Below are positions 1-40,979 of a DNA stretch of 64,000 nt, one piece after another. Under the pieces are notes generated by a model, which was not told the DNA's origin, made no database searches, and saw only the letters and a program-made list of their open reading frames with translations. A program made the translations under genes and the position numbers. Origin of the DNA: an uncultured bacterium (GTDB lineage: Bacteria; Krumholzibacteriota; Krumholzibacteriia; Krumholzibacteriales; Krumholzibacteriaceae); contig CAWFAD010000012.1 in the NCBI GenBank assembly GCA_963813815.1, forward strand, positions 147,590 through 211,589. Direction: 5' to 3'. Positions within the stretch are counted from its first letter, which is position 1. Each line of letters starts with the position of its first letter.

Positions 1-339
1 GAACGCGGCGATTGCTTCCTCGCGCGTTCCGTAGGGCCGAAGCAGCGTGCTGAACTCGAGGAGCTCGAAAACCTCTCTCACGTCCGGATGCATGGCCGTG
101 AGCTTGATGTCTCCCCCCCGCTGGCGTATCCCCTTGATCTCGCCCACGAAAATCCCCCAGCCCGCGGAGCTGATGTAATTCACCTCGCTGAGATCGGCGA
201 CAATGCGAACGGTGTTCGACGCGACGAGCTCGTTGAACGTATCCTCGAGAAACTGCGCCGTGCCCGAATCGATGATGCCACCGAGCTTCAGGACGACGAC
301 GTTCTCCACGTACTCTTCGCTAATAACGAGCTTGTCCAT
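1..339 (-). CDS. STAS-domain anti-sigma-factor antagonist (SpoIIAA/RsbV-like); 3' end runs off the window
   Basis: My own translation of the minus strand from ATG at 339: MDKLVISEEYVENVVVLKLGGIIDSGTAQFLEDTFNELVASNTVRIVADLSEVNYISSAGWGIFVGEIKGIRQRGGDIKLTAMHPDVREVFELLEFSTLL... This shows the typical STAS layout and a DLSxVxYISSxG phospho-acceptor motif. It is absent from the ORF track because no stop lies inside the window. Confidence 0.8.
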   Translation of the reverse strand, partial: MDKLVISEEYVENVVVLKLGGIIDSGTAQFLEDTFNELVASNTVRIVADLSEVNYISSAGWGIFVGEIKGIRQRGGDIKLTAMHPDVREVFELLEFSTLLRPYGTREEAIAAF

Positions 340-384
340 TATCTGGCCAGTCCTCTCCTCTGCCCCACCCTGAATTAGCAAACT

Positions 385-1503
385 TCAGTCCAATAATGCC
401 TTTAAAAGGATAAATATTCCCTGCTTGTCGTTCTCGGACAACCGCAGGTTTTTCTGCGCCTTCTGGTAATTCCCGTTGATTTCGAGCGCCTTTTGAAAGG
501 CCTTGTTGGCCCTGTCCATGAATATCTTGCATTTTGCGGTATAGAGGATGCCGAGGCTGTTGTGCCCGTCGGCGAAGGTCGGGTTCTGGTCGACGATCTG
601 GCGCACGCTCTCGAGATGCCCCTCGATATCCTCCTCGCGTAGATTTTCGCCGTCGTACAGAAGCATCAGGTAGAGGTCGAGCACGATGTCCTCGATCCCG
701 CCCCGCTCGGAGCGGCCACCGGCGCTCTCGAGGGCCTCGTACGCGAGCTCGTACTCCTTGCCCCGAAACAGGCTTCTCGCCTCCTCGACGCGGTTGGAGG
801 CGAGGTACGGATCGAGCTGCACGGCCCGGTCGAGATTGCCGAGAAACGCCGTATCGAGATCGCGCGCGAGCTCGTAATCCTCCTTGATGATCGTGTTGAG
901 GAGAAAGGCACGTGCGAGGTTGAGGTAGGGCTCGCCGTAGTAGAGATTGAGCCCGATGGCCCGGTTGAAGCAATCAATCGCGGCGCGGCATCGGCGCTGT
1001 TTGAGGTGTATCACGCCGAGCAGGTTGTGCAGATCGGGGTACTCGGGATTGATCGCGAGGCCGTTTTCCACGGCCTTTATGGCCGCGTCGAATTTTCCGG
1101 CCTCGAAGCTGCACGAACCGATGATCAAATGAGGAAGGGAATCCTTGTTTCCCTTTTCGATCGCATGCCGCGCCTCCTGGATCGCCTCGTCCAAGAGATG
1201 GCGCCTCGCGAGCGCCTGCGCCACGCGCAGATGCGGCTTCGGATCGTCGCTCTGGCGCACGCGGTCGGTCACGCCGAGCAGAATGAGGAAGCGCCGCTTG
1301 TTCTCGAGATGCGCCTCCTTCGTGGCCCGGCGCAGGGCTTCCGCGGGCGCCTTGCCGTCGATGGCGACGTCCGTCGTATCGAAGGGAACGCCGTTCCTGA
1401 AGAACGAGCTCTGAATGATCCCCTTTTGAGGAAGCATGCTCGTCTGCAGAAAATACTTCCGCCCGGCGTGATCGATTTCCTCTCTCAGCTCGAACCCCGT
1501 CAC
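385..1503 (-). CDS. TPR-repeat protein
   Basis: 372-aa ORF with repeated 34-aa TPR-like helical units (AIKAVENGLAINPEYPDLHNLLGVIHL, AIDCFNRAIGLN, AFQKALEINGNYQKAQKNL). GTG start at 1503 is preceded by GGAAGGAG 5 nt upstream. Confidence 0.8.
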   Translation of the reverse strand: MTGFELREEIDHAGRKYFLQTSMLPQKGIIQSSFFRNGVPFDTTDVAIDGKAPAEALRRATKEAHLENKRRFLILLGVTDRVRQSDDPKPHLRVAQALARRHLLDEAIQEARHAIEKGNKDSLPHLIIGSCSFEAGKFDAAIKAVENGLAINPEYPDLHNLLGVIHLKQRRCRAAIDCFNRAIGLNLYYGEPYLNLARAFLLNTIIKEDYELARDLDTAFLGNLDRAVQLDPYLASNRVEEARSLFRGKEYELAYEALESAGGRSERGGIEDIVLDLYLMLLYDGENLREEDIEGHLESVRQIVDQNPTFADGHNSLGILYTAKCKIFMDRANKAFQKALEINGNYQKAQKNLRLSENDKQGIFILLKALLD

Positions 1504-1561
1504 CGGATCTCCTTCCGTGCCGCCCGGATCATGCTAGCACGGTCCGTGCGCCCGCGCCAGC

Positions 1562-2338
1562 TTACCCTTCCCTCTCCCCGCCGGCGCAGCGTGCGCCGGC
1601 GCGATCGAGGCCGAGGATCTCCTCGGTGAGATGGTAATAATCGAACGCTCCGCGCGAAAGCGGCGCGTGTTCGAATATCGTCTTCTGCCGCCCCGGGGCC
1701 TCCCGGATCGCCTGATTCGCCCTGATGACCGTTTTGAGGAGCCGGCCTCCGAAGCGCTCGCGAAGGCTCTCGAGCATGCTGTGCGCGAGCCGGGTGCGCG
1801 AATCGTAGAACGTCGGCAGCAGCCGAATCGCAATCGGTCCGCGGCCGTTCCACGCCTGGATTTCCTCGACGATCTCGGCCGTCTGCACCGCGCCCGCCTC
1901 CGCCAGATAATCCATCGAGACGGGGATGATCACCTCGTCGCAATAGGCCAGCGCGTTGATGTTGATGAGGTTCAACGACGGCGAGCAATCGCAGATCACG
2001 TAATCGCACCCCTTGAGCTGTTTCAGCGACTCGGAGAGGCGCTGCTCGCGGTTGACGCGCGAGCCGAGCGTGAGCTCGACCTCCGCGAGGCGCCGGCCGC
2101 CCGAATCGATGAAGAAGAGATTGTCGCGCACCTGGAGAATCTCGACTTCTCCCGAGGTCAGAAGGTCCGCCAGCCCGCGCTCCCCGCGGACGCCGAGGCT
2201 GAGGGCCACGCTCCGCTGCGGATCGCAATCGATGAGGAGCACCCGCTTCCCCGTGAGCGAGAGACCGTGCGACAGGCACAGCGCGGTCGTCGTCTTGCCG
2301 GTTCCGCCCTTCATGGTCATCACAGCGTACTTTTTCAT
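1562..2338 (-). CDS. ParA/MinD-family P-loop ATPase (orphan, no parB nearby)
   Basis: MKKYAVMTMKGGTGKTTTALCL carries the deviant Walker A KGGxGKT; LLIDCDPQ and CSPSLN motifs are present. I prefer ATG at 2338 over the TTG at 2350 listed in the track. Confidence 0.85.
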   Translation of the reverse strand: MKKYAVMTMKGGTGKTTTALCLSHGLSLTGKRVLLIDCDPQRSVALSLGVRGERGLADLLTSGEVEILQVRDNLFFIDSGGRRLAEVELTLGSRVNREQRLSESLKQLKGCDYVICDCSPSLNLININALAYCDEVIIPVSMDYLAEAGAVQTAEIVEEIQAWNGRGPIAIRLLPTFYDSRTRLAHSMLESLRERFGGRLLKTVIRANQAIREAPGRQKTIFEHAPLSRGAFDYYHLTEEILGLDRAGARCAGGEREG

Positions 2339-2360
2339 GCCGCAGCCCAAACGCGCCCTT

Positions 2361-5300
2361 CTACTTCTTGCCCCGCGGCTTGCGATCCGAGTTGCGCAGC
2401 CGTTTGCCGTATTCGTCCCAGCCTATCCGCGTGATGCGCTTGTCTTTGTCTTCGCGGACGTCCGTTCGCTTCTTGAAATCGATGAAAATCACTTTCTCCG
2501 GATCCGCGACCCGCTCGAGCGGTTCGAGCGGAGCGATCTTCGAGGCGCCCAGAAGCGCGTCCGCGAGATCCTGCTTCCGGTCCTCGGGCTCGGGGGCGGG
2601 CGCTCCCGCGGGCGCTCCGGGACCGGGCGCCGCCTCGGGCGGCGCGAAATCCGCGGCGCCTTTCGCCGGCGCCAGCTCCGCGAGCGCCATTTCGAGCGTT
2701 CCGTAATGCGGAATGAGCGGCTCGAAACCGAGATCGCGGAATATATTGAGAATGCTCGAGCTCATGCCGGCGATGGCGATGCGCCCGCCGGTTTCGCCGA
2801 GCTTCTGAAGATACCTGATGATGATGCCCCATCCCCCGCTCGATATGTACACCATGCGTTCGACGTCCAGAATGAGATTGAGCGGCCGCTCATCCGCGCG
2901 CCGCGAGAGCTCCGCCTCGAACGCTTCGGCCGTCGAGGAATCGACGGCGCCGTCGATCGTCACCACGACGGTCCCTCCGACCGCGCGGGCGTCGCCTGCG
3001 GAAGCGATCGCGAGCGGCGTCCCGGCGCCCTCGGTCCGCTCCGCGCGGGGAGCCGCGGCGGCCTCGTCCGGAGGCTCCTCGTCGAGGATCTCCCCATCCG
3101 CGAGCGTCGGCGCCTCGTTCTTGAAATCCTCTATCGCCTCGGCCAGAACGCCGAAGGAGCGCATGATCGAGTCGAACCCGAGCAAGCTATAGATGCCGTC
3201 GACTTCCTGATCCATGCCGAAGATCTTGAGATCGCCGCCCCGCAGTCTGATGTCCTTGATGCGCGAGGCGAACACTCCCCAGCCGCTCGAGCTCACGTAC
3301 TCGACGCGCGACATATCGATGACGATCTTCACCGCGCCGCGGTCGACGAGCCCGTCCAGAACGGAGCGGAGGTTCACGCAGCTCACCGTGTCCACGACCC
3401 CGTCGAGGTACAACACGGTGATTTCCCCCTGATCTCCGACCGTCCCCGCCTCGATCTTGAGGGCGGCCCACGACGAATCCGTCTCCGGGACCTCTCCGGG
3501 CCCCGACGCGCCGGAAGCCGCCGTGGACTGGCGCGTTTCGAGCGTTCTGAGCGGGGCCGGGCGGGCCGATTCCCTCTCGAGTCGGCTCCGCCGCTCCGCG
3601 AGCGGGAGCGAGATATAAGCCGCCGCTTCATCGACCGTCGCGAACTGGAGGATGATCTCCTGGAAGCCGAGGAGCTCGTAGATGTCGTACACCTCCGGCG
3701 ACATGCTGGCGAGCACCACGTCCCCCTCTCCCTCGCGAAGCGATTTGACCCGCCCCGTGAAGATTCCCCAACCGCCGCTCGATATGTACATCACCCCGGC
3801 GAGATCGACGATGATCTTGCGGTATCCGTACTCGTGCACGCTTTCGAGAATTCCCTCGAGCTCTCCCGCCGACGAGGAATCGAGGTGGCCGGCCACGTGC
3901 AGCACCACCACGTCCCCCGCGAGCTCCTCCGATGTGACCTCGATCGCCCGTCCTTGGCCGGTCCCGAACGACTCGCGGGCGCCCCGCCGGCGCAGCGGCG
4001 GCGCGCTCTCGCGACGGAGGGACGGCGCCGCAGCGGCCGGACGAGCTTCGGGAACGCTCGCCGGCGCCGCTTCCTCCGGGGCGGCTTCCGCGGGGGCCTG
4101 CGGCGCCCCGGCTGCCTCGGCGGCCGCCTCGGCCGGACGGCCGTGCGCGGCGACGAGCTTCTTGAACTCCTCGTCGGAAATGAACCGGTTGCGGCGCAGA
4201 TACTCGAGCCGCATTTCGTAGGTGTTGAGCCGGATGCGCTTGAGCTCGTCGTAAACGATGGCGGGCGAGAGCAGGTCGCCCTCCGCCTTTCCCTCGTTGA
4301 ACGCCGCGGTGATCTTCTTCGCGCCGTAGCGGGGATGGTCGCGAATGATCCCGAGAAGCCCCTTCCGCTGCTCGATGCTCACGCGCCGGATATCGACCTC
4401 GCGTCGCAGCGTCTTGTCCTGCAGCCCCCGCTCCCCGAGCTCCTCGAGGCGCTTCTTGTATCGATAGTAGGTCGACGGCGACACCCGCATCATCCGGCAG
4501 GCCTCGGCGACCGCCACCCCCTGCACCTCGACGAGATCGAGGAGCTTCCGCCGGATGCCGTAGAGCACCTCGTCCGCCTGGAGCTTCTCCTTGATTGCGA
4601 CCACGGTGATGTCGTCGTTCTGCGGCTGATCGCCGGTAAAGCTCTTGATGTCGTCGTTGAGGCGATCGATGAACTCCTGCGGGGCGAGACGTCCGCACTG
4701 CTTGATGAGCCTGATGAGACGCTCCTCGCCGTATTGGTTGCGAGCGCCGTTCATCGCCTCCGTCACGCCGTCCGTATAGATGACGAGCATGTCGTCCTTC
4801 TTGAGCTTGATCTTCTCGACGTCGATCGAGCGGCGGAAGAGCGTGTCGTCGGGCAGCTTGATGCCGACCGGAAATCCTCGCGGGTTGAGAAAATACGTCT
4901 CGTCCGTCTCGGCGCGGTAGAGGATCATCGGATTGTGGCCGGCCGAGGCGTAGCTGATGATGCGGTTTTTCGAATCGAGGATCGAGTAGAAGATCGTAAC
5001 GAACATGCCTTTTTTCATGTCTTCCGTCACGAAATCGTTCATGCGCGCCATGACCTCGGCGGCCGAGTGGTTGCCCCGCGCCTCCATGCGCAGAGCCGTC
5101 CGGATCATCGTCATAACGAGCGAGCCGGGCACTCCCTTGCCGGAAACGTCCGCGACGACCACCCCGAGCGTGTCGTCGTCGACCCGCACGAAGTCGTAGT
5201 AATCGCCGCCGACCTCCTTGGCGGCCCGGTAGAGGCTCGCGATGTCGTAGCCGCCGATCGTGGGGACGCGCTTCGGGAGCAGCGTCTGCTGGATTTCCTG

Positions 5301-6593
5301 CGCGACCTGCATCTCCTTGTGGAGCCGCTCCTGCTCGACGACGTTCTTCTGGGCCTCGCGGAACTTCGACGTTATCTCGTTGAAGGCCCGGGCGATCTCG
5401 CCGATTTCCTGCGGCCCCGTGATTTGGATCTCGTCGCTGAGCGAGCCCTCGCCGATGGCGCGCACGCCGTCGGTGAGCGCCTGGATCGGGCGGACGAAAA
5501 TGGCCACGAGCAGGTAGCTGAGCGCCACCCCGGCGGCGAATACGCCGACGAGTATGAGCGTCATCATGGGCCGCGGGTCGATGATATCGCCCGTCGCGAT
5601 CGCCTCGGAGATGCCCACGACGACGCGTCCGATCTCGGAGGTCTGCCCCCGCTCGGAATCGGTCAGGTAAACGGCCTGATGAAACTCGCGAATGAGACCG
5701 AGGCTGTCGTGGGCCACCGTCCGGTACGCGGCGCCGCGATCGAGCGAGCGCACCTCGGCGGGAATCGCGTACGTCGTGAGAAACTCGTCCTGCTGGTTCG
5801 AAGCGAAGATGCGCCCGTCGGCGTGCACGACGCGGATATACTTCACCTCGGGATACCGCTTTATCTGCCGCGGAATCGCATCCGTGCTGAGCTCGAGCCC
5901 GCTCACGTCGTAGGGATCCTTCGTGAGCGCGCCGACGCTCAGGCTCGCGATGGTTTCGGCGACCCGCTTGCGCTGCAGCCAGGTGTCGGCGAATCGGTCG
6001 CGCAGCTCGTTCGTCTGACGGTAGAGGAGAATCGCCCAGAGGAACACGACGAGGCCGAAGAGGCCGAGCGTCGTGCGCAACGCGAACTTGAATCGGAGCG
6101 TCGAGGTCCACTTCGGCCGCCTGATCGAGCCGAAGAGCTGCGGCCGCGCGGCGGCCGCGGCCGAGTTTTTTACCATGTAGAGGCGATTCCCCGTCGGCGA
6201 AGCCGAATAGCTCAAATTGTCCATGAGGCGGTTCATCAGGTAGATGCCGAGACCGCCCTTCTTGCCGATTTCGACATAATGGTCGAGGTCGGGCTCCTTG
6301 ACCTTGGACCAGTCGAAGGGCTCGCCGCGGTCGAAGATGCTGATCTCGACCGTGCCCGGACCCGCCTGAACGTCGATCCGGATGTCTCCGGCTTTCTCTT
6401 TGTACGCGTGTTTGATGATGTTCGTGCATGCTTCATCGACGGCGAGCTTCGTGTTGTTCGTTTCGCCCTTCGAGAATCCCGCGCGATCGCAGATGCCGGC
6501 GATGAAATCCCGGACCTCGCTCAGGTTGTTCTCGTCCGCGGGAACCTCGAGATGGAACGTCTCGCGCTCCCGCATGCGCTCGCCGCGTTTCAC
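2361..6593 (-). CDS. Multidomain membrane signalling protein: RsbW/SpoIIAB-type Ser kinase, TM, extracytoplasmic domain, TM, HAMP, PP2C/SpoIIE phosphatase, transposase-type HTH, then three STAS domains
   Basis: Uninterrupted 1,410-aa ORF. Kinase N-box EACTNIIKHAY and G-box GKKGGLGIYLMN lie at ~6166-6560. Hydrophobic segments are at ~6020-6085 and ~5495-5572. HAMP is at ~5345-5495. PP2C motifs GGDYYDF, ADVSGKGVPGS, SAGHNP, YTDGVTEA and NDDITVV lie at ~4590-5310. HTH (VAEACRMMRVSPSTYYRYKKRLEE, DHPRYGAKKI) is at ~4200-4560. STAS units are at ~3625-3950, ~3130-3470 and ~2675-2985. GTG start overlaps the upstream stop (GTGA). Confidence 0.9.
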   Translation of the reverse strand: MKRGERMRERETFHLEVPADENNLSEVRDFIAGICDRAGFSKGETNNTKLAVDEACTNIIKHAYKEKAGDIRIDVQAGPGTVEISIFDRGEPFDWSKVKEPDLDHYVEIGKKGGLGIYLMNRLMDNLSYSASPTGNRLYMVKNSAAAAARPQLFGSIRRPKWTSTLRFKFALRTTLGLFGLVVFLWAILLYRQTNELRDRFADTWLQRKRVAETIASLSVGALTKDPYDVSGLELSTDAIPRQIKRYPEVKYIRVVHADGRIFASNQQDEFLTTYAIPAEVRSLDRGAAYRTVAHDSLGLIREFHQAVYLTDSERGQTSEIGRVVVGISEAIATGDIIDPRPMMTLILVGVFAAGVALSYLLVAIFVRPIQALTDGVRAIGEGSLSDEIQITGPQEIGEIARAFNEITSKFREAQKNVVEQERLHKEMQVAQEIQQTLLPKRVPTIGGYDIASLYRAAKEVGGDYYDFVRVDDDTLGVVVADVSGKGVPGSLVMTMIRTALRMEARGNHSAAEVMARMNDFVTEDMKKGMFVTIFYSILDSKNRIISYASAGHNPMILYRAETDETYFLNPRGFPVGIKLPDDTLFRRSIDVEKIKLKKDDMLVIYTDGVTEAMNGARNQYGEERLIRLIKQCGRLAPQEFIDRLNDDIKSFTGDQPQNDDITVVAIKEKLQADEVLYGIRRKLLDLVEVQGVAVAEACRMMRVSPSTYYRYKKRLEELGERGLQDKTLRREVDIRRVSIEQRKGLLGIIRDHPRYGAKKITAAFNEGKAEGDLLSPAIVYDELKRIRLNTYEMRLEYLRRNRFISDEEFKKLVAAHGRPAEAAAEAAGAPQAPAEAAPEEAAPASVPEARPAAAAPSLRRESAPPLRRRGARESFGTGQGRAIEVTSEELAGDVVVLHVAGHLDSSSAGELEGILESVHEYGYRKIIVDLAGVMYISSGGWGIFTGRVKSLREGEGDVVLASMSPEVYDIYELLGFQEIILQFATVDEAAAYISLPLAERRSRLERESARPAPLRTLETRQSTAASGASGPGEVPETDSSWAALKIEAGTVGDQGEITVLYLDGVVDTVSCVNLRSVLDGLVDRGAVKIVIDMSRVEYVSSSGWGVFASRIKDIRLRGGDLKIFGMDQEVDGIYSLLGFDSIMRSFGVLAEAIEDFKNEAPTLADGEILDEEPPDEAAAAPRAERTEGAGTPLAIASAGDARAVGGTVVVTIDGAVDSSTAEAFEAELSRRADERPLNLILDVERMVYISSGGWGIIIRYLQKLGETGGRIAIAGMSSSILNIFRDLGFEPLIPHYGTLEMALAELAPAKGAADFAPPEAAPGPGAPAGAPAPEPEDRKQDLADALLGASKIAPLEPLERVADPEKVIFIDFKKRTDVREDKDKRITRIGWDEYGKRLRNSDRKPRGKK

Positions 6594-17500: not shown

Positions 17501-20500
17501 ACGGCGTCGACGACGCTGGCGGAAGATACGGTGTTCGTGTAAGCGTCGATGGCGTCTTGCGCCCCGGCCGAGGCGGGGGCATGATACGTGACCGAAACGG
17601 TGCCGGTGCTATCGCTCGTGCCGCGGCGCATCGACAGAGTGAGCTCTTCCGTCGTGCTGCCGGCCGCTGCGCTCAGATAGCCGTCGGCGGGAGTGTCCTT
17701 GATGTAGATCGTGACGTTTTCGTTGAAAACGAGGTTGTTGAAACCGTCCCGGAGCGTGGCCGTTACGGTCGTTTCCGTGTTCACCGTCACCGGCTTGCTC
17801 GCGGGGGCGAGCGCGACGGAGGCGACAGGTCCGTGATCGGTCGTCGCCGTGAAGACCGCTTCGCGAACGGTCCCGGTGGAAATCGCCGCCGTCGCTTCGT
17901 TCGTGTTGAGACCGGCGACCGTTCCGAGCCGCCAGTATTCGCAGGATGCCGTTCCCGCGCCGCCCGTGACCGCCGTGGTCTGCACGCCCGCGAGCGCGAC
18001 GCTCGCGTCGATCGCGCCGCCCCCCGCCGTGGCGGCGAAGGCCACCGTGACGCCGGGCACCCGGTTTCCGAATGCATCCTCGACCGCGACGACGAGCTGC
18101 AGCGGCACCGGCGTATTGACGACCGCCCGCTGTCCGTCTCCGCTCACGGCGTAGACTCTATCCGCGCCCGCCGGAGAAACGGCGAGCGCCGTGGCGGACG
18201 CCGACGACACGCCGCCACTCGCCGCGGCGATCGTGATCGACTCCGCCAGGCGGTCCGTGATGAGGAGCTCCGCGTCCCCGCCGTCGATCGAGACGAACTG
18301 ATAGGTCACGGTATCGCCGGCTTCGGACACGATGAAGCCCGCGGCGTTTCCGAGCCCCCACGTCGCCTCGTCGGCGGCCGCGGCCCTCACCGGATATACT
18401 TTGACCGTTCCGGCGAACGAGGTGAGCTTGTTGTTGTTGGCGTCCCGGGCGTCGATCGACACCGCCGCGGGAACCCCGGCCGTAGCCGTCCCGCCGTGCG
18501 TGACGATAAAGTGGTGGAGCGCTCCCGCCGTAAACGCCACGGGTACGACGTCATCGAGGAGAGCGCCTCCCGCGCGCGCCCGGATGCTCTTTATCTCCGC
18601 CACGGTCGACCGGACGCTCCCGGCCGCCCGGCCGTCCGCGCCCGTCACGACCGAGGGCTGAGCAATAGTGTTGCCGCTTCCCGTGCATTCGAGGGTCACG
18701 AGAACGCCGGGGATCGGATTCGAATCGGCGTCGCGCACGTACACGGTCACGATCACGGCATCCGCGCCGTCGGCGATGATCGCCGTTTTGTCGACCTGGA
18801 TCTCGGAAACTACCGGGTCGAAGGGGCCCGGCACAAAGCTCACGGCGGCTCCCGCCGTGACGAGCGCACCGTCCACGCGAGCCCGAATCGTTTTCGTCTC
18901 GGCGACGGTCGATTTCACGCCGCCCCTCGCAAGGCCGTCCGGGCCCGTGAGCCCGACCGGCTGCCGTATGTCGTTCCCGCTCCCCGTGCACTCGAGCGCC
19001 ACGACGCTCCCCGAGATCGGGTTCCCTTCCCCATCCCGAACAGTCACCGTCACGAGCACGGAATCGGCGCCGTCGGCCGTGATCGTCGTCTTGCTCACAT
19101 CGAGGTCGGATACGTCAGGAGAGAAAGGCCCCGCCGCGAACGTGACAGGAATGCTCTCCGCCAAATAAACCGCGTCAACGAGCGCGCGTATCGTCTTACC
19201 CTCGGCCGCGGTCGATTTCACGCTTCCAACGGCCCGGCCCAGTACGTCGGTGAGGCTCCCCGGCTGCCGGATCGAGTTCTCCGTTCCCGTGCACACGATC
19301 GTCACGGCCTTGCCCGAGATCGGGTTCCCCTGCCCGTCCCGGACAGTCACCGTCACAACGATCGAGTCCACCCCGTCCGCCGTCGCCGTCGTCTTGCTCA
19401 CCGCAATGTCCGACACCGACGGATCAAACGGTCCCGTCACGAACGAGACGGGAATGCTCTCCACCAGGTAAACCGCGTCAACGAGCGCGCTGATCGTCTT
19501 CCCCTCGGCCGCGGTCGATTTCACGCTTCCAACGGCCCGGCCCAGTGCGTCGGTGAGGCTCCCCGGCTGCCGGATCGAGTTCTCCGTTCCCGTGCACTCG
19601 AGCGCCACAACGCTCCCCGAGATCGGGTTCCCCTGCCCGTCACGAACAGTCACCGTCACAACGATCGAGTCCACCCCGTCCGCCGTCGCCGTCGTCTTGC
19701 TCACCGCAATGTCCGACACCGACGGATCAAACGGACCCGTCACAAAGCTCACCGCCACGAGCTCCGTCAGATATATCCCGTTCGCTCGAGCGCGTATCGT
19801 CTTGCCCTCCGCCACCGTCGACGCCACGCTCCCCACCGCCACCCCACTCGCGTTCGTCACCGCACCCGGCTGCCGTACGTCGTTCCCGCTCCCCGTGCAC
19901 TCGAGCGCCACAACGCTCCCCGAGATCGGGTTCCCCTGCCCGTCACGAACAGTCACCGTCACAACGATCGAGTCCACCCCGTCCGCCGTCGCCGTCGTCT
20001 TGCTCACCGCAATGTCCGACACCGACGGATCAAACGGACCCGTCACAAAGCTCACCACCACCTGCTCCGTCAGATATATCCCGTTCGCTCGAGCACGTAT
20101 CGTCTTGCCCTCCGCCACCGTCGACGCCACGCTCCCCACCGCCACCCCACTCGCGTTCGTCACCGCACCCGGCTGCCGTACGTCGTTCCCGCTCCCCGTG
20201 CACTCGAGCGCCACGACGCTCCCCGAGATCGGGTTCCCCTCCCCGTCTCGAACAGTCACCGTCACAACGATCGAGTCCACCCCGTCAGCCGTCGCCGTCG
20301 TCTTGCTCACCGCAATGTCCGACACCGACGGATCAAACGGACCCGTCACAAAGCTCACCGCCACGAGCTCCGTCAGATATATCCCGTTCGCTCGAGCGCG
20401 TATCGTCTTGCCCTCCGCCACCGTCGACGCCACGCTCCCCACCGCCACCCCACTCGCGTTCGTCACCGCACCCGGCTGCCGTACGTCGTTCCCGCTCCCC

Positions 20501-23361
20501 GTGCACTCGAGCGCCACGACGCTCCCCGAGATCGGGTTCCCCTGCCCGTCTCGAACAGTCACCGTCACAACGATCGAGTCCACCCCGTCAGCCGTCGCCG
20601 TCGTCTTGCTCACCGCAATGTCCGACACCGACGGATCAAACGGACCCGTCACAAAGCTCACCGCCACCTGCTCCGTCAGATATATCCCGTTCGCTCGAGC
20701 GCGTATCGTCTTGCCCTCCGCCACCGTCGACGCCACGCTCCCCACCGCCACCCCACTCGCGTTCGTCACCGCACCCGGCTGCCGTACGTCGTTCCCGCTC
20801 CCCGTGCACTCGAGCGCCACGACGCTCCCCGAGATCGGGTTCCCCTGCCCGTCCCGAACAGTCACCGTCACAACGATCGAGTCCACCCCGTCCGCCGTCG
20901 CCGTCGTCTTGCTCACCGCAATGTCCGACACCGACGGATCAAACGGACCCGTCACAAAGCTCACCGCCACGAGCTCCGTCAGATATATCCCGTTCGCTCG
21001 AGCGCGTATCGTCTTGCCCTCCGCCACCGTCGACGCCACGCTCCCCACCGCCACCCCACTCGCGTTCGTCACCGCACCCGGCTGCCGTATGTCGTTCCCG
21101 CTCCCCGTGCACTCGAGCGCCACGACGCTCCCCGAGATCGGGTTCCCCTGCCCGTCTCGAACAGTCACCGTCACAACGATCGAGTCCACCCCGTCAGCCG
21201 TCGCCGTCGTCTTGCTCACCGCAATGTCCGACACCGACGGATCAAACGGACCCGTCATAAAGCTCACCGCCACCTGCTCCGTCAGATATATCCCGTTCGC
21301 TCGAGCGCGTATCGTCTTGCCCTCCGCCACCGTCGACGCCACGCTCCCCACCGCCACCCCACTCGCGTTCGTCACCGCACCCGGCTGCCGTATGTCGTTC
21401 CCGCTCCCCGTGCACTCGAGCGCCACGACGCTCCCCGAGATCGGGTTCCCCTCCCCGTCCCGAACAGTCACCGTCACAACGATCGAGTCCACCCCGTCCG
21501 CCGTCGCCGTCGTCTTGCTCACCGCGATGTCCGACACCGACGGATCAAACGGACCCGTCACAAAGCTCACCGCCACGAGCTCCGTCAGATATATCCCGTT
21601 CGCTCGAGCGCGTATCGTCTTGCCCTCCGCCACCGTCGACGCCACGCTCCCCACCGCCACCCCACTCGCGTTCGTCACCGCACCCGGCTGCCGTATGTCG
21701 TTCCCGCTCCCCGTGCACTCGAGCGCCACGACGCTCCCCGAGATCGGGTTCCCCTCCCCATCCCGAACAGTCACCGTCACAACGATCGAGTCCACCCCGT
21801 CCGCCGTCGCCGTCGTCTTGCTCACCGCGATGTCCGACACCGACGGATCAAACGGACCCGCCACGAAGACCGCCTCGAGGTCATGGGCGACGTATATACC
21901 TCCGCTCGAGGCAGTGACCGTCTTGCTCTCGGCCACGAGCGAGCGAATCGAGCCGCTCGCGAGACCGTTCACGTCCGTCGCTGCGGCGGGCTGGATGATC
22001 GTGTTGCCGCTTCCCGTCGCCTCGAATGCGACGGTCGCCCCCTCGATGCCGTTCGAAAACTCGTCGAGGATATGCGCGGCGAGCGGAACGGAATCGACCC
22101 CGTCCGCGACGGCGCTCGGGTCGCTCGAGACGATATCCGAAACTACCGGATCGTATGGGGCGTGATCGATGTAGATCGCGGCGGAGGCGGCCTCGAGCGT
22201 CGGAAAGACCCCGTCCTGATCGAGCAGGCCGAGGATGTAGGGAATGACGAGCTCCTTCAGGGTGTTGCGATAGTCGAGAGAGATGGAATACGAGCCGCTC
22301 GGAATAACGATCTGCGCGATCGGAGTCGAGTGATCGCCCGTCGTGTAAAAGCTCCCCGGCTGGCCGAAAAGCGAGATGGTCTGGCTGCTCGAAACAGGGC
22401 TCGGGTTGCCGAAGGCGTCCTCCACGAGCAGCCGGTACCTCACGTAGTCGCCCGCGACGGCGAGCGTATCCGCCGGCGCAACGAGGAGACGGAATGGCGT
22501 GCCGGGCAGGACGGTGATGCTCTGCTGCGGGTCGGCCCAATCCTGCCCCACTGCCGATGCCGTGATGGTCTTGACGCCCGCGACCGTATCGCGATAGTAG
22601 AAAGAGACGGTATCGGTTCCAACCGCAATCGTCACCGTATCGGTATCCGAAAAGCCCGCGCCCCCGAGATGCGAGAATCGTCCGGTAGGGGCGCTCGACG
22701 AAAGATACACGTCCAGATCCGCGGAAACGGGCGTTGAGTTCCCAAAGGCATCCACGGAGGAGAGACGAATCACGCTGCTTTCCGAGTCAGCCGGAAAGAC
22801 GCGCGGCGGAGTGACGAACGCGATCCCCGCGGTCGGGCCGCCCACGACGACATCGAGGGTCGGCGACGATGCGATGGGCACCCGAGGGCCCGGAGTGTTG
22901 GGATCTGAGCGCACCAGGAAAGGGACGTTGCTCTCGGGATAGGTCTGCGCCCTCGCCGCGCCGCCCGGATTCACTGAAACGTCGCCGTATATGACCGCCA
23001 CCGTCTGCCCCAAGCCGAGGGTCGTAATGTTGACGATAATGCTTTGCCCCGAGATCGTGATAGCCGGCGTTCCGAGAGTCCCGGCCGTCGAAGCCCTCAC
23101 GTAGCCAGCCACCAATGAGCTCAATATTTGCGGCGGACTCCATCCATCGGGAATAACGACCTCGATCGAGCCGACGGAGAATGTCTCCGCGCTCGTGTAA
23201 GTAATGGTCCACGTGCCATACGTGCCGACTATGACATCCGCCGACGGGCTGATGACGGCCGTGCCCGATCCCTCGGCGGCCCGAGCGCCAGGCCCGGCGA
23301 GCGCCGAGAGGACGAGCAACGCAATGAGCAGCGGAATGATTCTGGGGAATTGTTTTTTCAT
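8497..23361 (-). CDS. Giant (4,954 aa) secreted adhesin-like protein: signal peptide, Ig-like domains, 12 Big_1-type repeats, many CARDB-like modules, C-terminal Por_Secre_tail/FlgD-Ig-type sorting domain
   Basis: One continuous ORF. I chose ATG at 23361 (MKKQFPRIIPLLIALLVLSALAGPGARA, a classic signal peptide) rather than 23517. It carries recurrent V-x-N-x-G motifs. The C-terminus reads NYPNPFAAGSQETRICYFLL..VSIRIYDLAGILV..WDGRNARGETVRNGVYLCKVEAG. Confidence 0.9.
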   Translation of the reverse strand: MKKQFPRIIPLLIALLVLSALAGPGARAAEGSGTAVISPSADVIVGTYGTWTITYTSAETFSVGSIEVVIPDGWSPPQILSSLVAGYVRASTAGTLGTPAITISGQSIIVNITTLGLGQTVAVIYGDVSVNPGGAARAQTYPESNVPFLVRSDPNTPGPRVPIASSPTLDVVVGGPTAGIAFVTPPRVFPADSESSVIRLSSVDAFGNSTPVSADLDVYLSSSAPTGRFSHLGGAGFSDTDTVTIAVGTDTVSFYYRDTVAGVKTITASAVGQDWADPQQSITVLPGTPFRLLVAPADTLAVAGDYVRYRLLVEDAFGNPSPVSSSQTISLFGQPGSFYTTGDHSTPIAQIVIPSGSYSISLDYRNTLKELVIPYILGLLDQDGVFPTLEAASAAIYIDHAPYDPVVSDIVSSDPSAVADGVDSVPLAAHILDEFSNGIEGATVAFEATGSGNTIIQPAAATDVNGLASGSIRSLVAESKTVTASSGGIYVAHDLEAVFVAGPFDPSVSDIAVSKTTATADGVDSIVVTVTVRDGEGNPISGSVVALECTGSGNDIRQPGAVTNASGVAVGSVASTVAEGKTIRARANGIYLTELVAVSFVTGPFDPSVSDIAVSKTTATADGVDSIVVTVTVRDGEGNPISGSVVALECTGSGNDIRQPGAVTNASGVAVGSVASTVAEGKTIRARANGIYLTEQVAVSFMTGPFDPSVSDIAVSKTTATADGVDSIVVTVTVRDGQGNPISGSVVALECTGSGNDIRQPGAVTNASGVAVGSVASTVAEGKTIRARANGIYLTELVAVSFVTGPFDPSVSDIAVSKTTATADGVDSIVVTVTVRDGQGNPISGSVVALECTGSGNDVRQPGAVTNASGVAVGSVASTVAEGKTIRARANGIYLTEQVAVSFVTGPFDPSVSDIAVSKTTATADGVDSIVVTVTVRDGQGNPISGSVVALECTGSGNDVRQPGAVTNASGVAVGSVASTVAEGKTIRARANGIYLTELVAVSFVTGPFDPSVSDIAVSKTTATADGVDSIVVTVTVRDGEGNPISGSVVALECTGSGNDVRQPGAVTNASGVAVGSVASTVAEGKTIRARANGIYLTEQVVVSFVTGPFDPSVSDIAVSKTTATADGVDSIVVTVTVRDGQGNPISGSVVALECTGSGNDVRQPGAVTNASGVAVGSVASTVAEGKTIRARANGIYLTELVAVSFVTGPFDPSVSDIAVSKTTATADGVDSIVVTVTVRDGQGNPISGSVVALECTGTENSIRQPGSLTDALGRAVGSVKSTAAEGKTISALVDAVYLVESIPVSFVTGPFDPSVSDIAVSKTTATADGVDSIVVTVTVRDGQGNPISGKAVTIVCTGTENSIRQPGSLTDVLGRAVGSVKSTAAEGKTIRALVDAVYLAESIPVTFAAGPFSPDVSDLDVSKTTITADGADSVLVTVTVRDGEGNPISGSVVALECTGSGNDIRQPVGLTGPDGLARGGVKSTVAETKTIRARVDGALVTAGAAVSFVPGPFDPVVSEIQVDKTAIIADGADAVIVTVYVRDADSNPIPGVLVTLECTGSGNTIAQPSVVTGADGRAAGSVRSTVAEIKSIRARAGGALLDDVVPVAFTAGALHHFIVTHGGTATAGVPAAVSIDARDANNNKLTSFAGTVKVYPVRAAAADEATWGLGNAAGFIVSEAGDTVTYQFVSIDGGDAELLITDRLAESITIAAASGGVSSASATALAVSPAGADRVYAVSGDGQRAVVNTPVPLQLVVAVEDAFGNRVPGVTVAFAATAGGGAIDASVALAGVQTTAVTGGAGTASCEYWRLGTVAGLNTNEATAAISTGTVREAVFTATTDHGPVASVALAPASKPVTVNTETTVTATLRDGFNNLVFNENVTIYIKDTPADGYLSAAAGSTTEELTLSMRRGTSDSTGTVSVTYHAPASAGAQDAIDAYTNTVSSASVVDAVYSSVSSGATDLRATVLAGATSQAGITFSFVVEAVDGNGNRDLANSSRILLQASVDGGFSFSLSDFGATITEADLASGAVIIYGRGTRAGSWQIDALDEAAVLAPAQIPILIVANDVVSSYVVTAPAAAVAGAEFAVTAEARDLYGNRVASAGYTVDFRAVEASDSTQTASSALSPASGTLVNGLFAGANFRYTVAEPIRVEVSSVSNAVKGYSGAVSVGNAAAYQLVKIGGDSSGVAVGDSVRLAARVLDAYGNTVDGHSVFFTVQEGGGAISSPLAVSDAAGVARAWFRTDTLCGTNRARAAILDASPEGLETQGFTVTTVPRSAIDRVALSLPGTSFTAGEMFTCEVAAYDVYGNLIDTDSSTGLRAVAERASIDFTPDVMTLLAGVSSFTAFDSTAGANRIAVLSLAGDTLAPWSAEIAIEPAAAYRVVEVNGDTSGVIAGASVDLRARVTDRYGNAAPDEIVRFQVTSDLGGSPVLWDGTGAANDGLVLTDAGGAALCALTTDANAGVNSVSASILDASPPLLEQVVFDVGTIAGTIARFDVIPDGFAKKAGESFAVEIIAYDGYGNEAFDDDTTRVLLASDGSATFAVNPVTLSAGRATASARDTVAELLVLRARTLAGGATSYSGTITVSPEAPSGAIGIATVIPDTITANGTSTSAISTGAIRDVYGNVVAPGTLVRVTASAGTVISEDKDPSTPLTVERQTEASGAVSVFVRSATSPAVSTVEFQSVTGSAVGSVAVVFAPAPVCLYAGYLAPRHLLPTEPAQFRCSTSNTSPTGTYLSTATTISFADSLGHVYEAHLAAPAFLRGSATDTLDFQTVVVPAGLLGGTYTPRVALAGNDIYGFSYRGEFSAGSNSVSVSDVDILQVVSEKAIVSRGDTFTVDVRVRNGGGSTVSVIDITLKFANGFYGMAGDWNPPLPDDLAPGAERLYRHDIFALGYSPLGFDTIDASITAQANGSQVQDQTAYPNVSVIFVQAAASLSYVASTLDPDTVSRGQTHSFSLSVRNAGDAALILDPSETRLSFTDGADAVSVPLGYAGAIPGNTATALVFPPVSVPTAMDAGSWPVAVRLRGTENGGFFDTTLVLSDEMRVVDPAAVSYVIGTLAPAVVSKQSDVSFGVGVANSGGASVLCDPDSTWFTFTDGSLTYAASLDATRGRTIDPGVATLYFRAAVVPSDMAVGSYPPSLAIGGSENGLRFASIFALADSVGVQEPSQLAITSTTVLPAPMVTADQATPWFASVQVRNNGGATVRLESFSMRLLAGPVDVTGECILAPLDFTPNVDSLLGGETRAILVRLDDNPSGAMTTGTIVIESALAGRDLNSGASLLATTEYGGKGSYLVQTPASLVFAAVTASTDTVTALQTKDWFCDVAVRNAGQSDLGLDLDPAASFIAFSTSGDFIVVPPVELAGGGVVLEGGSTDTLRWRIDRSGSVAGPCVVESTVRGTELTSGRIISLASGDQGISGDVLVQTPAALAISRITPLQNPVTVSQDRAWSVEMEVRNTGQSDAALELGRIDSTRVVIPGGSGFVIDNPLALVEGGTVLRGGAAGRLVFTVSTTGMISPGTLALAGSVLAVETTSDRHVFASRAAPEDTVTFELPPDPSYVTGSLAPLAASSGTSVSFEAAIAADAGLRSTLTLDRSATTLSFGDADGDTVRTSLSDVSPNVLPSASQQTLLFDAALVDVALSLGRHAAFIRLVGEENGNPFSTVLPLSPDSVLVEQAPQLGISGIVTPQSVTRSQTEPWNVWMKLRNSGEASVSLDLAAAKTFLTFTIVGVGDRTYEYTVVRPAALSGIGGAILPGGAVDSLLFTVTSTGSTPGIALVNGTVTGTDVNSNLTVSDDTYSGGFSHVMVELPGDPAVVSSAPSRATVTSAQTTPWQIACEVCNAGEADLTLIPDSARVYRDEGLPLAHARPPAFVEGGLDLPGGECRHLVFSVSPTPEIPAGADIELHADVELVENNNGVHRSYDTRLDGSGSGSIRVQAQARLAVALAATAAPRAPYVDSGQQFVVVAEVANGGEARVENVGVALEGSGSSAIADTLVFIDAIAGFASASDTFLVTADGEGSEIFTARIRSAVDANSGESDYVLFDAAVDDTALAVIQRPAALVVTAVTPSQEAVNAGQTIEWTIDVGVRNDGEAPLEIDAAASDDLAFSIDGVSVGGYLVIAPETFVSGASPLVLEGGAADTLLYRIAATGRDTGSVDIAATLGWIDGNEPEAPRPPASGSGSVLVRPPSGLRIVAVTSDAPNNASFANTSIVNTGQTFNLTVRVENTGGDDLDSVLVRLATSGVSGTLVEGDSLAYMPSRTERDFVYAVTAAPSSAVEYLRASIVKAVSVNTGEPVTPAEAVESIENLRIETAALLACGASITSPAGAIDDTLSTGQIFVVTVLVENAGEAAIDTTGRVTLALPVSMSLADPADPLTRRFDAGAPLEWTLVAPAAPSLDTLRASISSVPNDINIGSPAAIQTAESRIVARTEEAGGIAECSVSVAAPAGAVDGVLSTDQEFVARVALVPSVNADSVWAELSAPAGYAVAGDMIKFVGAGAGELVTLDWTVRAPSIAAPVDTLVGRAGGVDANSGERLPVRRVVFAVRAVEKAALALAGRISGPDGALDGILSVNQSFTIEATAANAGEAGVDTAGARIELVLPSGQNYDLDGAGETYRKPFYPGEPVAWNVRAPAEPTSPGNLQIRFVEPLAEDVNTNLACAVTTGEVFLPVQTETGAVRMLNLSSLDTIPPVVVPQGAAGVPIMRAEFENTSGYTIGLDTLYVAIKDGTGRLVSPPSRRVSGVALVAGGVRFEAAVSEANPVPIVAGHAFEVVPGAADTLLLTADIAANAPAGEIRFEIEESADVVFSITLEGGGAGSRVGVVDDQGGDIAGSFLSGPLTVLSARFEDYVHNYPNPFAAGSQETRICYFLLEDAAVSIRIYDLAGILVWTKEIASGEEGGTGSADGIMHEIPWDGRNARGETVRNGVYLCKVEAGSQSALFKIAVAK
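18534..22170 (-). repeat. Tandem array of twelve 303-bp (101-aa) Big_1-like Ig-domain repeats inside the giant CDS; about 7-9 units are near-identical (~19,300-21,870)
   Basis: The same strings recur at exactly 303-bp offsets (cacaaagctc at 19741, 20044, 20347 and so on). The protein unit is GPFDPSVSDIAVSKTTATADGVDSIVVTVTVRDG[EQ]GNPISGSVVALECTGSGND[IV]RQPGAVTNASGVAVGSVASTVAEGKTIRARANGIYLTE[LQ]VAVSF. Confidence 0.92.
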
Positions 23362-23655
23362 CTTTCGAATCCGGCTCCCGGCCCTGTTTTCGCAGCTGAT
23401 TCGGAAAATTCGCAAGGTGTGTGCCAACACCCCGTTAACTGCTGAAACGCCGGGAAAAGGGCCCGGGCTTTCAGGGAAGACGGCTCGCCGCGAGAATCTC
23501 CGAATGCCACTGAGCATCGTAACTGATTCCGGGACAAGCAGTTAACACCATTCCTTGGAGCTGGTTCGAAGCGGCGTAATCCCTCTTCGCCGCGGACTTC
23601 ACCGGATGAACGATCCGCGGCGTCCGCTATCACGGCCCGGCATCGCCACACGCTG

Positions 23656-23684
23656 AAAATAGCAAACTCCCGGGCAAATCGCAA
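23656..23684 (-). promoter_or_regulatory. Candidate sigma-70-type promoter for the giant gene (TTGCGA-N17-TATTTT)
   Basis: Minus-strand reading gives TTGCGA tttgcccgggagtttgc TATTTT, located ~290 nt upstream of ATG 23361 in a 466-bp intergenic gap. Confidence 0.4.
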
Positions 23685-23827
23685 CACCGCCGCCATTCTT
23701 AACTTTTTGAAATATCGATTATTATGCGGCTCCGCGCAGCCGCCGGAGCGCTCCGGCGGAGGCCGCCGGCCGTGCAGCCGACCGAATGAATTCCGCCGCG
23801 GAGAGCGGAGCTCGAAGGCCCGCTCGA

Positions 23828-24220: not shown

Positions 24221-24223
24221 GAT

Positions 24224-24631: not shown

Positions 24632-24654
24632 GAGCCGATTATACTCCGGCGTCG

Positions 24655-38905: not shown

Positions 38906-38963
38906 GTTTCCCCGGACCTCCTCATCCCATCTTGCGGCTGGGATATCGAAACGCTTCAACAAG

Positions 38964-40922: not shown

Positions 40923-40979
40923 AGTTCCCTTCTTTATGTCTTGTAAATCGCGCGCAACCAACATCCCAACGCTATATGT

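Follow-up and report, generated by a model that had tools for sequence, protein, structure and literature searches.

A 64-kb contig stretch of an uncultured Krumholzibacteriota bacterium (CAWFAD010000012.1; "the window" below means all 64,000 nucleotides of it) begins with six closely packed genes, one of which encodes a surface protein of 4,954 amino acids. Four of these genes form a core that, judged by sequence comparison, is kept across distant organisms with GC contents from 0.38 to 0.71: a protein with a C-terminal sorting domain (CTD), an outer-membrane beta-barrel fused to TPR repeats (barrel-TPR), a membrane sensor with kinase and phosphatase domains, and a small STAS protein. So recurrent a gene set points to a real and apparently undescribed functional module. 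By analogy with known systems, we think it on balance probable that this is a trans-envelope module, in which a secreted cargo and its dedicated shuttle or anchor (resembling SprB-SprF) are wired to a partner switch like SypE/SypA. The other two genes of the window, for an orphan ParA and a cytoplasmic TPR protein (TPRp), are better described as add-ons. A sequence-only reading of the window had proposed a single co-expressed module of six partners: the conserved string and very likely coupling hold up, while the six-partner composition does not.

The gene string in Krumholzibacteriota

All six genes lie on the minus strand within the first 23.4 kb, and their third-position GC (GC3) of 0.79-0.86 is of coding type (Table 1). 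The stop codon of the giant gene (TGA, 8499-8497) overlaps the start of the barrel-TPR gene (AAGTGATGG at 8497-8500, with GTG at 8500 or ATG at 8497 as start), and the stop codon of the barrel-TPR gene overlaps the GTG start of the sensor gene (GGTGAAAC, that is GTGA, at 6590-6593); both overlaps measure 4 nt. Gaps of 22 nt (sensor stop to ParA start), 58 nt (ParA stop to TPRp start) and 45 nt (TPRp stop to STAS start) separate the remaining genes, and purine-rich ribosome-binding sites precede the TPRp start (GGAAGGAG) and the STAS start (GAGGAGAGG). In a terminator scan of positions 1-9000, no minus-strand site fell inside any intergenic gap: the four minus-strand matches were all intragenic, and the total of nine terminator-like matches is within the shuffle expectation of 5.9 +/- 2.7. 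The overlaps, the gap lengths and the lack of terminator-like hairpins in the gaps, all claimed by the sequence-only reading, were thus confirmed on the minus strand.

The neighbourhood was followed in one genome per GTDB species, giving 24 loci onto which the window proteins were mapped by tblastn and phmmer. On one strand, these loci share the order giant C-terminus, barrel-TPR, sensor (with a helix-turn-helix domain, HTH, and three STAS domains), ParA, TPRp, STAS, second STAS and a membrane protein of 718-725 aa. The order is conserved in 18 complete and 6 contig-truncated loci, with no gene missing wherever sequence is available, and a TPRp-anchored scan of metagenome contigs added eight further complete copies. 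Median gaps are 6, 0, 2, 79 and 47 nt over about 18-24 species. Sensor orthologues (49-86% identity) come directly after the barrel gene in every locus, and overlapping stop and start codons are often conserved between these two genes. One locus (L023, CAWIIQ010000001.1) is a nanopore assembly and was ignored for frameshifts; its barrel, sensor and TPR genes are each split into two to five frames, probably by homopolymer errors rather than because they are pseudogenes. Scattered homologues in related genomes had been named beforehand as what would speak against coupling; the neighbourhood search was instead strongly positive. Because the string is conserved, tightly packed and on one strand, co-expression and functional coupling are very likely, and its genes are, as far as sequence can tell, almost certainly co-transcribed.

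The string is also longer than it first seemed. The six genes stand, but the window edge cuts the string short, and a second STAS gene and the 718-725-aa membrane protein follow. Contigs with a TPRp identical to that of the window show what comes after the STAS gene (122 codons): another STAS gene, of 145 codons, then a protein of 718 aa, one with a redoxin domain and one with a lamin-tail domain. The 718-725-aa protein (L004 19103-21280; L020 19141-21290) has hydrophobic stretches at both its N- and C-terminal ends and a DRSRSM motif like a vWA MIDAS site; it had no Pfam or NCBIfam match.

Table 1. Location of the genes of the string and of features within and beside them
Feature	Location	Strand	Details
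Leader/promoter region upstream of giant gene, non-coding	23362-23827	minus	466 nt
Giant surface-protein gene	8497-23361	minus	ATG at 23361; 4,954 aa; open reading frame and translation
Tandem array within giant gene	18957-21868	minus	303-nt unit, 9.6 copies, 93% matches (Tandem Repeats Finder)
CTD of giant, like type A in T9SS (type IX secretion system) / FlgD-Ig-like	8509-8784	minus	last ~90 residues
Barrel-TPR gene	6590-8500	minus	636 aa, with signal peptide
Barrel-TPR: beta-barrel	aa 40-312
Barrel-TPR: helical/TPR arm	aa 316-629		about 310-320 residues
Sensor gene	2361-6593	minus	1,410 aa
Sensor: RsbW-type Ser kinase	aa 17-142		HATPase_c_2 PF13581, 107 bits
Sensor: hydrophobic helices (transmembrane, TM)	TM1 aa 170-194; TM2 aa 340-374		hydropathy
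Sensor: Cache-like region	between TM1 and TM2		periplasmic loop
Sensor: HAMP	aa 363-406
Sensor: PP2C/SpoIIE phosphatase	aa 472-668		PF07228, 174.6 bits over full model
Sensor: transposase-type HTH (HTH_28/29)	aa 681-795
Sensor: three STAS domains	about aa 890-1310		followed by Lys/Arg-rich basic tail
ParA gene	1562-2338	minus	258 aa
TPRp gene	385-1503	minus	372 aa
Free STAS gene	1-339	minus	start at 339; 113 of 122 codons inside window, rest past the edge

The core beyond the phylum

The core turns up in some 60 environmental loci, both related and distant. Seven are genome loci of Ignavibacteriales, Zixibacteria and FCB bacteria, where a full-length barrel-TPR protein (28-31% identity) is preceded by a protein of ~1,240 aa, which shows homology to the C-terminus of the giant in its C-terminal ~750 residues and its CTD, and followed by a 680-aa RsbW-Cache-HAMP-PP2C sensor; STAS comes next after the sensor except in L026 and one contig-limited case. 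Another 11 metagenome loci with the core were found from TPRp. An exhaustive hidden Markov model (HMM) search over 1.84 billion representative proteins yielded 874 matches at E<=1e-30; among those with the highest scores, many are barrel-TPR fusions of 600-680 aa, matched once and over their full length. Eight such matches were looked up. One contig (L161) is short and ends inside the sensor gene, and the seven that are long enough (GC 0.38-0.59) all read CTD protein, barrel-TPR, sensor, STAS. The CTD proteins there range from 1,069 to at least 5,988 aa, sizes that are taken from the individual loci (homologues of the giant in the protein search are contig-truncated fragments); the sensors measure 684-1,302 aa and the STAS proteins 212-242 aa. 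Six of the seven RsbW-(Cache/HAMP)-PP2C sensors have an HTH, and extra C-terminal TPRs are usual: in L163 and L165-L168 they form the sensor C-terminus, after the HTH where one is present, and their similarity to TPRp is generic. What follows the core differs. Six of the seven loci go on with unrelated housekeeping genes, while L162 continues into a GGDEF gene and a polysaccharide-export block. Overall, the vast majority of barrel-TPR loci with upstream sequence have a CTD protein immediately before the barrel; a few (e.g. L026) gave no match at the threshold applied, CTD detection in relatives being by single-sequence phmmer and probably incomplete. Barrel-only PorV-like genes also occur in other loci, without the switch, and several of them stand right after a CTD protein.

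Four architectures can be told apart. Type K (Krumholzibacteriota) is arranged as in the window. Type I (GC about 0.5) runs from barrel-TPR through a 940-aa HTH-bearing sensor, ParA, STAS, GAF-GGDEF, Wza, Wzz, TPRp and a tyrosine autokinase to an XrtA-type polysaccharide deacetylase (TIGR03006, 337 bits; cutoff 276). Type S is the same without HTH and ParA, and type 0 consists of STAS, GGDEF, Wza, TPRp and kinase, with no CTD protein, barrel or sensor. The flanks of these loci are informative. In L135, a type 0 block sits directly after RNaseY-YmdB-FolD; L028 and L162 have the RNaseY-YmdB flank as well (FolD confirmed in L162), and there the genes for CTD protein, barrel-TPR and sensor stand between this flank and STAS. 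This comparison argues that these three genes were gained or lost as one unit. The polysaccharide block is likewise found without the three genes in L134, L135 and L142, and in L127 and L128 both halves are rearranged and yet adjacent. In L130, a Por_Secre_tail protein (517 aa, 14497-16050) and an 881-aa DUF7901 protein (16359-19004) lie downstream of the polysaccharide block; CTD proteins and XrtA-like polysaccharide genes are therefore interleaved there.

The proteins and their surroundings

A putative signal peptide suggests that the giant protein is Sec-exported: after the ATG at 23361 (the mechanical open reading frame reaches further upstream, to 23517) it begins MKKQFPRIIPLLIALLVLSALAGPGARA, a typical signal sequence with a hydrophobic segment at residues 3-29 in the hydropathy profile. 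It contains 13 Ig-like domains of the Big_1/Invasin_D3 kind (Pfam Big_1, 1e-198, 13 stretches), followed by CARDB-like beta-sandwich repeats; Pfam also gives CARDB and FlgD_ig. In the tandem array, one 303-nt unit encodes one 101-aa Big_1 domain, and the domains are near-identical. At 18-22 kb, where the array lies, GC skew is strongly negative (-0.15 to -0.32); the number of copies could be an assembly error or differ from strain to strain. At the C-terminus, the CTD passes the T9SS type A model TIGR04183, also matches the CTD ends of PorU, PorZ and M6-like T9SS models, and scores 22.9 bits against PF13860 FlgD_ig, under the cutoff of 27. NCBI names one homologue of the giant (P0131) "T9SS type A sorting domain-containing protein", and no type B CTD model was among the matches on the C-terminal 500 residues. 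Residues ~1630-4954 are collinear with the entire 10-kb upstream flank in 12 Krumholzibacteriota loci, at 43-64% identity and nearly constant length. Because these C-terminal 3,300 aa are collinear at such identity across the phylum, we doubt the "adhesin" label that the protein had been given: it is unproven, and the region is more conserved than, in our judgement, a fast-evolving adhesin would be. Elsewhere in the window, an S8 subtilase (32478-34877, minus strand) carries a C-terminal FlgD-Ig-like/T9SS-like sorting domain (PF13860, 34 bits), without an adjoining barrel gene; other secreted proteins of this genome therefore use such a CTD.

The barrel had been called PorV-like, a claim borne out by both its family score and its predicted fold. 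Residues 40-311 match the PorV/PorQ family model NF033709 (108.5 bits; cutoff 90), and TPR_2/TPR_11 are matched as well. In the AlphaFold2 (AF2) model (pLDDT 83.7), barrel strands at 77-312 are followed by long helices and TPR pairs. The best solved structures for the barrel are 8gl6_F (E 6e-11) and 6h3i_F, with target TM-scores of 0.62-0.66; both are chain F of F. johnsoniae type 9 translocon complexes, a chain that we take to be PorV, and both outrank FadL and TodX. Sequence and model together thus assign the barrel to the PorV/PorQ family, with a predicted FadL-like fold. Its 133 close homologues (~630 aa, 48-81% identity) are, where named, all from Krumholzibacteriota/Krumholzibacteria. 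Even-stranded outer-membrane barrels have both termini in the periplasm, and the TPR arm should therefore hang into the periplasm.

The sensor appears, by its motifs, to be a complete and intact kinase/phosphatase. The N, G1 and G2 boxes of the kinase (DEACTNIIKH, FDRGEPF, GGLGIYLM) and the metal-binding motifs of the PP2C domain (GGDYYD, ADVSGKG, YTDG, NDDITVV) are all visible. The kinase domain matches RsbW and SpoIIAB models and the STAS domains match SpoIIAA and anti-sigma-antagonist models above cutoffs, while the best phosphatase match of the PP2C region is SiaA. A search for a receiver (REC) domain found none in the sensor; between kinase and phosphatase sit the TM segments, the Cache-like loop and HAMP. 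No solved relative was found for the HTH region, whose wide conservation suggests direct DNA binding by a membrane sensor and possibly autoregulation. The free STAS protein (PF01740, 63.5 bits) is of the anti-sigma-factor-antagonist type. Aligned to SpoIIAA, it has a serine where the variant chain 1tid_B has alanine (YISSAGWG versus FMDSSGLG), a position that we take to be the phospho-acceptor, and the motif Y[IV]SSxGWG is present in all five STAS domains (three sensor-fused and two free) of 28 loci. The proposal of a phospho-switch is in keeping with all this: kinase and phosphatase domains retain their motifs, and the STAS proteins retain the putative phospho-acceptor serine.

ParA matches AAA_31 (117 bits) and also CbiA, and it has the deviant Walker A motif KGGTGKT. 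Its best solved relative is 1wcv, a "segregation protein" (E 3.6e-39, residues 2-244) that is presumably Thermus thermophilus Soj; against the equivalog NF041546 it scores 87.7 bits, under the cutoff of 180. There is no adjoining ParB gene, the next gene being that of TPRp. ParA proteins and bacterial tyrosine kinases (BY-kinases) are both deviant-Walker-A P-loop ATPases, and a degenerate tyrosine autokinase was considered and rejected: the protein is Soj-like, it fails the autokinase model TIGR01007 (28.8 bits; cutoff 108), it shares 26% identity over 140 aa with a true kinase, and type I loci have both. Orthologues in the same position are 59-79% identical in Krumholzibacteriota and 48-55% in type I loci. 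They come directly after the sensor, with gaps of -4 to 6 nt in Krumholzibacteriota and overlapping genes in type I loci, and only beside HTH-bearing sensors. An exclusive co-occurrence of HTH and ParA is ruled out by six HTH-bearing sensors (L163-L168) that have no ParA, and most sensors with an HTH do without it. With these six included, at least 18 loci with the four-gene core have no ParA, which is therefore accessory rather than part of the core. The "positioning" role that the sequence-only reading gave it is purely conjectural and not supported as stated.

TPRp is cytoplasmic by its features, with Pfam TPRs and with neither a hydrophobic segment nor a signal peptide. Its AF2 model (pLDDT 91.3) shows an N-terminal four-strand beta-meander, a long helix and a TPR solenoid; a fold search matched generic TPR proteins alone and gave no function for the N-terminal domain. 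All 211 homologues are ~372 aa long, and the protein is collinear over its full length with a 373-aa protein encoded between Wzz and a tyrosine kinase in Ignavibacteriales and Zixibacteria (E 4e-24). It ends in ...NDRQGIFILLKALLD, and its last ~25 residues (KAQKNLRLxENDRQGIFILLKALLD; window 385-450) are almost invariant over 20 diverse orthologues. This tail looks amphipathic by eye and may be a membrane-targeting or partner-binding tail. In Krumholzibacteriota TPRp adjoins ParA, and elsewhere its usual neighbours are Wzz and a true BY-kinase: the ATPases beside it in L028 and L130 score 166 and 143 bits on TIGR01007 (cutoff 108). An origin of TPRp as a split-off of the sensor-fused TPRs (a Rosetta-stone relation) was considered, and the similarity turned out to be only weak and generic (E about 1e-4 over 80-110 aa). 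A unit of six equal partners was rejected, as the additions ParA and free TPRp are limited to Krumholzibacteriota and a single further lineage.

Upstream of the giant gene, the leader has no open reading frame with coding-type GC3, its local GC is lower, and no sigma-70-like promoter was called in it. A riboswitch or structured leader was considered and rejected: there was no Rfam match (E<=1), the fold z was -1.7, and repeats were short and at chance level. A perfect 20-nt palindrome, CCGCCGGAGCGCTCCGGCGG, lies at 23740-23759, ~70 nt past the stop of the upstream lipoprotein gene and without a following T-run; it may serve as an operator or form a stem of the terminator kind. Next come two tandem small proteins (130 and 135 aa; 23828-24631, minus strand) with lipoprotein-like N-termini, which by eye resemble glycogen-binding (CBM48-like) modules. 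Ahead of them, at 24638-24666, stands TTTACA-17-TATAAT (11/12), the one strong match to a sigma-70-like promoter hereabouts, and the next gene upstream (24655-26595) has an AMPK1_CBM/CBM48 domain. Four large minus-strand open reading frames of 666-803 aa (26592-28856, 36632-38962, 38964-40964 and 41898-44309) have coding-type GC3 and matched nothing in Pfam or NCBIfam; the last three fall within a stretch of lower GC at 36-46 kb (0.60-0.62 versus about 0.67 elsewhere) that may be an island. By a GC3-based call, 29 of the 31 coding open reading frames in positions 1-64000 are on the minus strand, an unusually long co-oriented run.

Precedents, mechanism and rival readings

Related cargo-shuttle pairs are known from Bacteroidota. 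Complexes of PorP-PorE-PG1035 and SprF-SprB have been described, with PorE as an outer-membrane-associated periplasmic partner of PorP in P. gingivalis (PMC9143113), and cognate PorP/SprF shuttles are encoded beside their cargo (PMC12618676). The window is similar in that the gene for a very large CTD surface protein is followed by one for a FadL-like barrel of the PorV/PorQ/PorP group. It differs in how the TPR partner is attached: PorE, which contains a TPR domain, is a separate lipoprotein, whereas in the present module barrel and TPR arm form one protein. Moreover, SprB-SprF uses a type B CTD whereas the CTD here is type A-like, the barrel belongs to the PorV/PorQ rather than the PorP/SprF family, and the module lies outside Bacteroidota. 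We know of no Bacteroidota cargo/barrel pair that is linked to a kinase/phosphatase sensor, and a search of the literature turned up none. PorV and PorQ-PorZ offer another comparison, since the CTD of PorZ, which is type-A-like and uncleaved, is kept at the surface by PorQ. The family-level match (NF033709), the PorV-like structural match and the proposed anchoring role are shared; however, PorV and PorQ have no C-terminal TPR arm, whereas the barrel here has one of 320 residues, and PorV serves all cargo, whereas this barrel is apparently dedicated to one neighbour.

For the switch, the closest parallel is SypE, a kinase/phosphatase that acts on the STAS protein SypA and controls a polysaccharide biofilm below the level of transcription (PMC3610818). 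Unphosphorylated SypA promotes matrix production through a non-transcriptional target, syp being a polysaccharide-export locus (PMC3610818, PMC4517449, PMC8256260), and a PP2C/STAS module controls a glycosyltransferase (PMC13555669). Both SypE and the sensor described here combine an N-terminal RsbW-like kinase and a C-terminal PP2C domain in one protein, with a small STAS substrate that has a conserved serine. The central input of SypE is a receiver domain, whereas the sensor has two TM helices, a Cache-like loop and HAMP, to which it adds an HTH and, in Krumholzibacteriota, three fused STAS domains; the syp locus contains neither a CTD protein nor a PorV-like barrel, whereas the module is tied to both. 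In Mycobacterium tuberculosis Rv1364c, sensor, PP2C phosphatase, RsbW-type kinase and STAS are also fused in one polypeptide, but the domain order differs, and Rv1364c is to our knowledge cytoplasmic, with PAS input, a single STAS domain, no HTH and no envelope partners. In the Pseudomonas HsbR-HsbA-HsbD and SiaABCD systems, a STAS-like protein under the control of a PP2C/kinase pair turns on a diguanylate cyclase and aggregation, with HsbA acting on HsbD and SiaC on SiaD. Types S and I, with GAF-GGDEF after STAS, resemble them; the window cluster has no cyclase, and the Pseudomonas systems have no secretion-cargo or barrel pair.

As for ParA, ParA/MinD ATPases position protein cargos (reviewed in PMC11407121), and in a preprint a ParA/MinD ATPase influences TatA dynamics (bioRxiv 10.1101/2025.07.02.662783). 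Like the orphan ATPases PpfA, McdA and BcsQ, the one here is a small Soj-like ParA without ParB in an operon for a large non-DNA assembly, but it is dispensable for the module in most lineages. The parts are therefore of known kinds (T9SS-style cargo and shuttle, SypE/SypA-like switch, orphan ParA), and their conserved union appears to be undescribed. In a literature search of limited coverage, no paper connected type IX secretion to partner switching, STAS, RsbW or SpoIIE, and none connected Krumholzibacteriota to type IX secretion; to that extent the sequence-only reading was right that no system of the same composition has been described.

The mechanism that we infer for the module would run from the cell surface inward. 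The barrel would bind the CTD of its neighbour and act as a private shuttle and cell-surface anchor of the giant, by analogy with SprF-SprB, PorP-PorE-PG1035 and PorQ-PorZ. The periplasmic TPR arm would then report the status of the cargo or fibre to the periplasmic Cache loop of the sensor, a communication suggested by invariant adjacency and matching compartments. In response, the sensor would shift its kinase versus phosphatase activity and so set STAS phosphorylation, as SypE does with SypA, and unphosphorylated STAS, the sensor HTH or both would alter the expression or activity of matrix functions. A matrix-related output is suggested by the cyclase and exporter that adjoin the core in types S and I, as well as by the PP2C/STAS precedents. 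In Krumholzibacteriota, the added Soj-like ParA and cytoplasmic TPR scaffold may organise the complex spatially. A bolder form of this proposal, which we regard as a long shot, is that the core is an unrecognised trans-envelope sensing circuit: the TPR arm would relay the occupancy, load or ligand state of the fibre, STAS phosphorylation would autoregulate fibre and matrix, the system would be the first partner switch on a type-IX-style shuttle, and a self-contained secretion and anchoring route would be possible if the T9SS core is lacking.

Several points weigh against a trans-envelope module of this kind. The contact between TPR arm and Cache loop is a guess from adjacency and topology. The giant CTD clears the TIGR04183 cutoff marginally (25.0 bits versus 23). 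The barrel falls below the equivalog cutoffs for PorV (NF033710, 38.2 versus 250) and PorQ (NF033711, 69.1 versus 220), and is therefore filed as a family member rather than as either protein; against the PorP/SprF model TIGR03519 it scores 16 bits (cutoff 90.55). No core T9SS gene (SprA/Sov, PorK/L/M/N, PorU) was found among the other large open reading frames of the 64-kb window with Pfam and NCBIfam, a search that covered the window alone. In the Krumholzibacteriota cluster, window included, there is no sigma factor, GGDEF or polysaccharide-export gene, with no GGDEF, Wza or Wzz within 10 kb downstream. A barrel-TPR fusion from Spirochaetia (L071, 20% identity) has no sensor downstream. Finally, the loci all come from uncultured organisms, many of them related, and locus counts are not independent evolutionary events.

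This last point, together with the comparative nature of all the evidence, is what could be said for the view that the genes are neighbours by shared ancestry or chance alone, with no functional tie. That view is extremely improbable: gene order is kept at 47-80% protein identity within the phylum, the core is kept at 20-33% identity from GC 0.38 to 0.71 with differing flanks, the first three genes are gained and lost together, and overlapping stop and start codons are conserved. If the genes do work together, the tie might be of another kind than the one proposed. The module might primarily be a regulator of the biofilm matrix, with STAS acting on cyclic di-GMP (c-di-GMP) synthesis and polysaccharide export and the CTD protein as a matrix component. 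The gene order of types S and I, from STAS through GAF-GGDEF, Wza, Wzz, TPRp and tyrosine autokinase to the XrtA-type deacetylase, would fit this, as would the rearranged halves that are still adjacent in L127 and L128 and the SiaA match of the PP2C domain; such cyclase and polysaccharide-export neighbours in relatives indicate matrix or biofilm control rather than adhesin positioning. Yet the downstream 10 kb in Krumholzibacteriota hold no GGDEF, Wza or Wzz gene, six sampled lineages have housekeeping genes only after the four-gene core, and L134, L135 and L142 carry the polysaccharide block while lacking the first three genes. As a full account of the module, this is possible but doubtful.

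We consider it unlikely that all six genes work as a single machine whose orphan ParA, on a nucleoid track, would place the apparatus that secretes the adhesin or else the sensor complex, with TPRp as adaptor. The ATPase is a full-length Soj-type protein with an intact deviant Walker A motif and no adjoining ParB, always found directly after the sensor, and the sensor and TPRp end in a Lys/Arg-rich tail and an almost invariant amphipathic tail, respectively. Given that ParA/MinD ATPases do place protein cargos, its constant place after an HTH sensor is compatible with nucleoid-based positioning (PMC11407121). However, ParA is missing from the at least 18 core-bearing loci mentioned above, those with the HTH sensors L163-L168 among them, and the usual neighbours of TPRp elsewhere are tyrosine autokinase and Wzz rather than ParA. 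We think it quite unlikely, too, that a canonical partner switch is at work, in which the membrane-tethered RsbW domain holds a sigma factor encoded elsewhere until dephosphorylated STAS releases it. The RsbW/SpoIIAB and SpoIIAA/anti-sigma-antagonist matches would agree with that textbook mechanism (PMC8256260, PMC11619594), but in none of the roughly 60 loci does the cluster contain or adjoin a gene for a sigma factor, non-sigma proteins are the targets of many fused kinase-phosphatase/STAS systems, SypE/SypA among them (PMC3610818, PMC8256260), and the sensor's own HTH could serve as output.

The trans-envelope module would bring together two fields that have been studied in different settings. 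Work on type IX secretion and its shuttles has been confined almost entirely to Bacteroidota, and partner switches have mostly been looked at as cytoplasmic switches of stress response and sporulation; the module joins a type IX-like cargo and a partner switch in Krumholzibacteriota, Ignavibacteriales, Zixibacteria and many environmental lineages. Its evolution looks modular, one core having been joined either by a block for c-di-GMP and polysaccharide export or by a pair of ParA and TPR proteins. If the coupling is functional, it would give the cell a route to sense or control a giant surface fibre from inside, the unannotated "TPR repeat proteins", a large family, would gain a function, and it would provide an envelope-linked example of how STAS proteins act on non-sigma targets, a question that is open for SypA.

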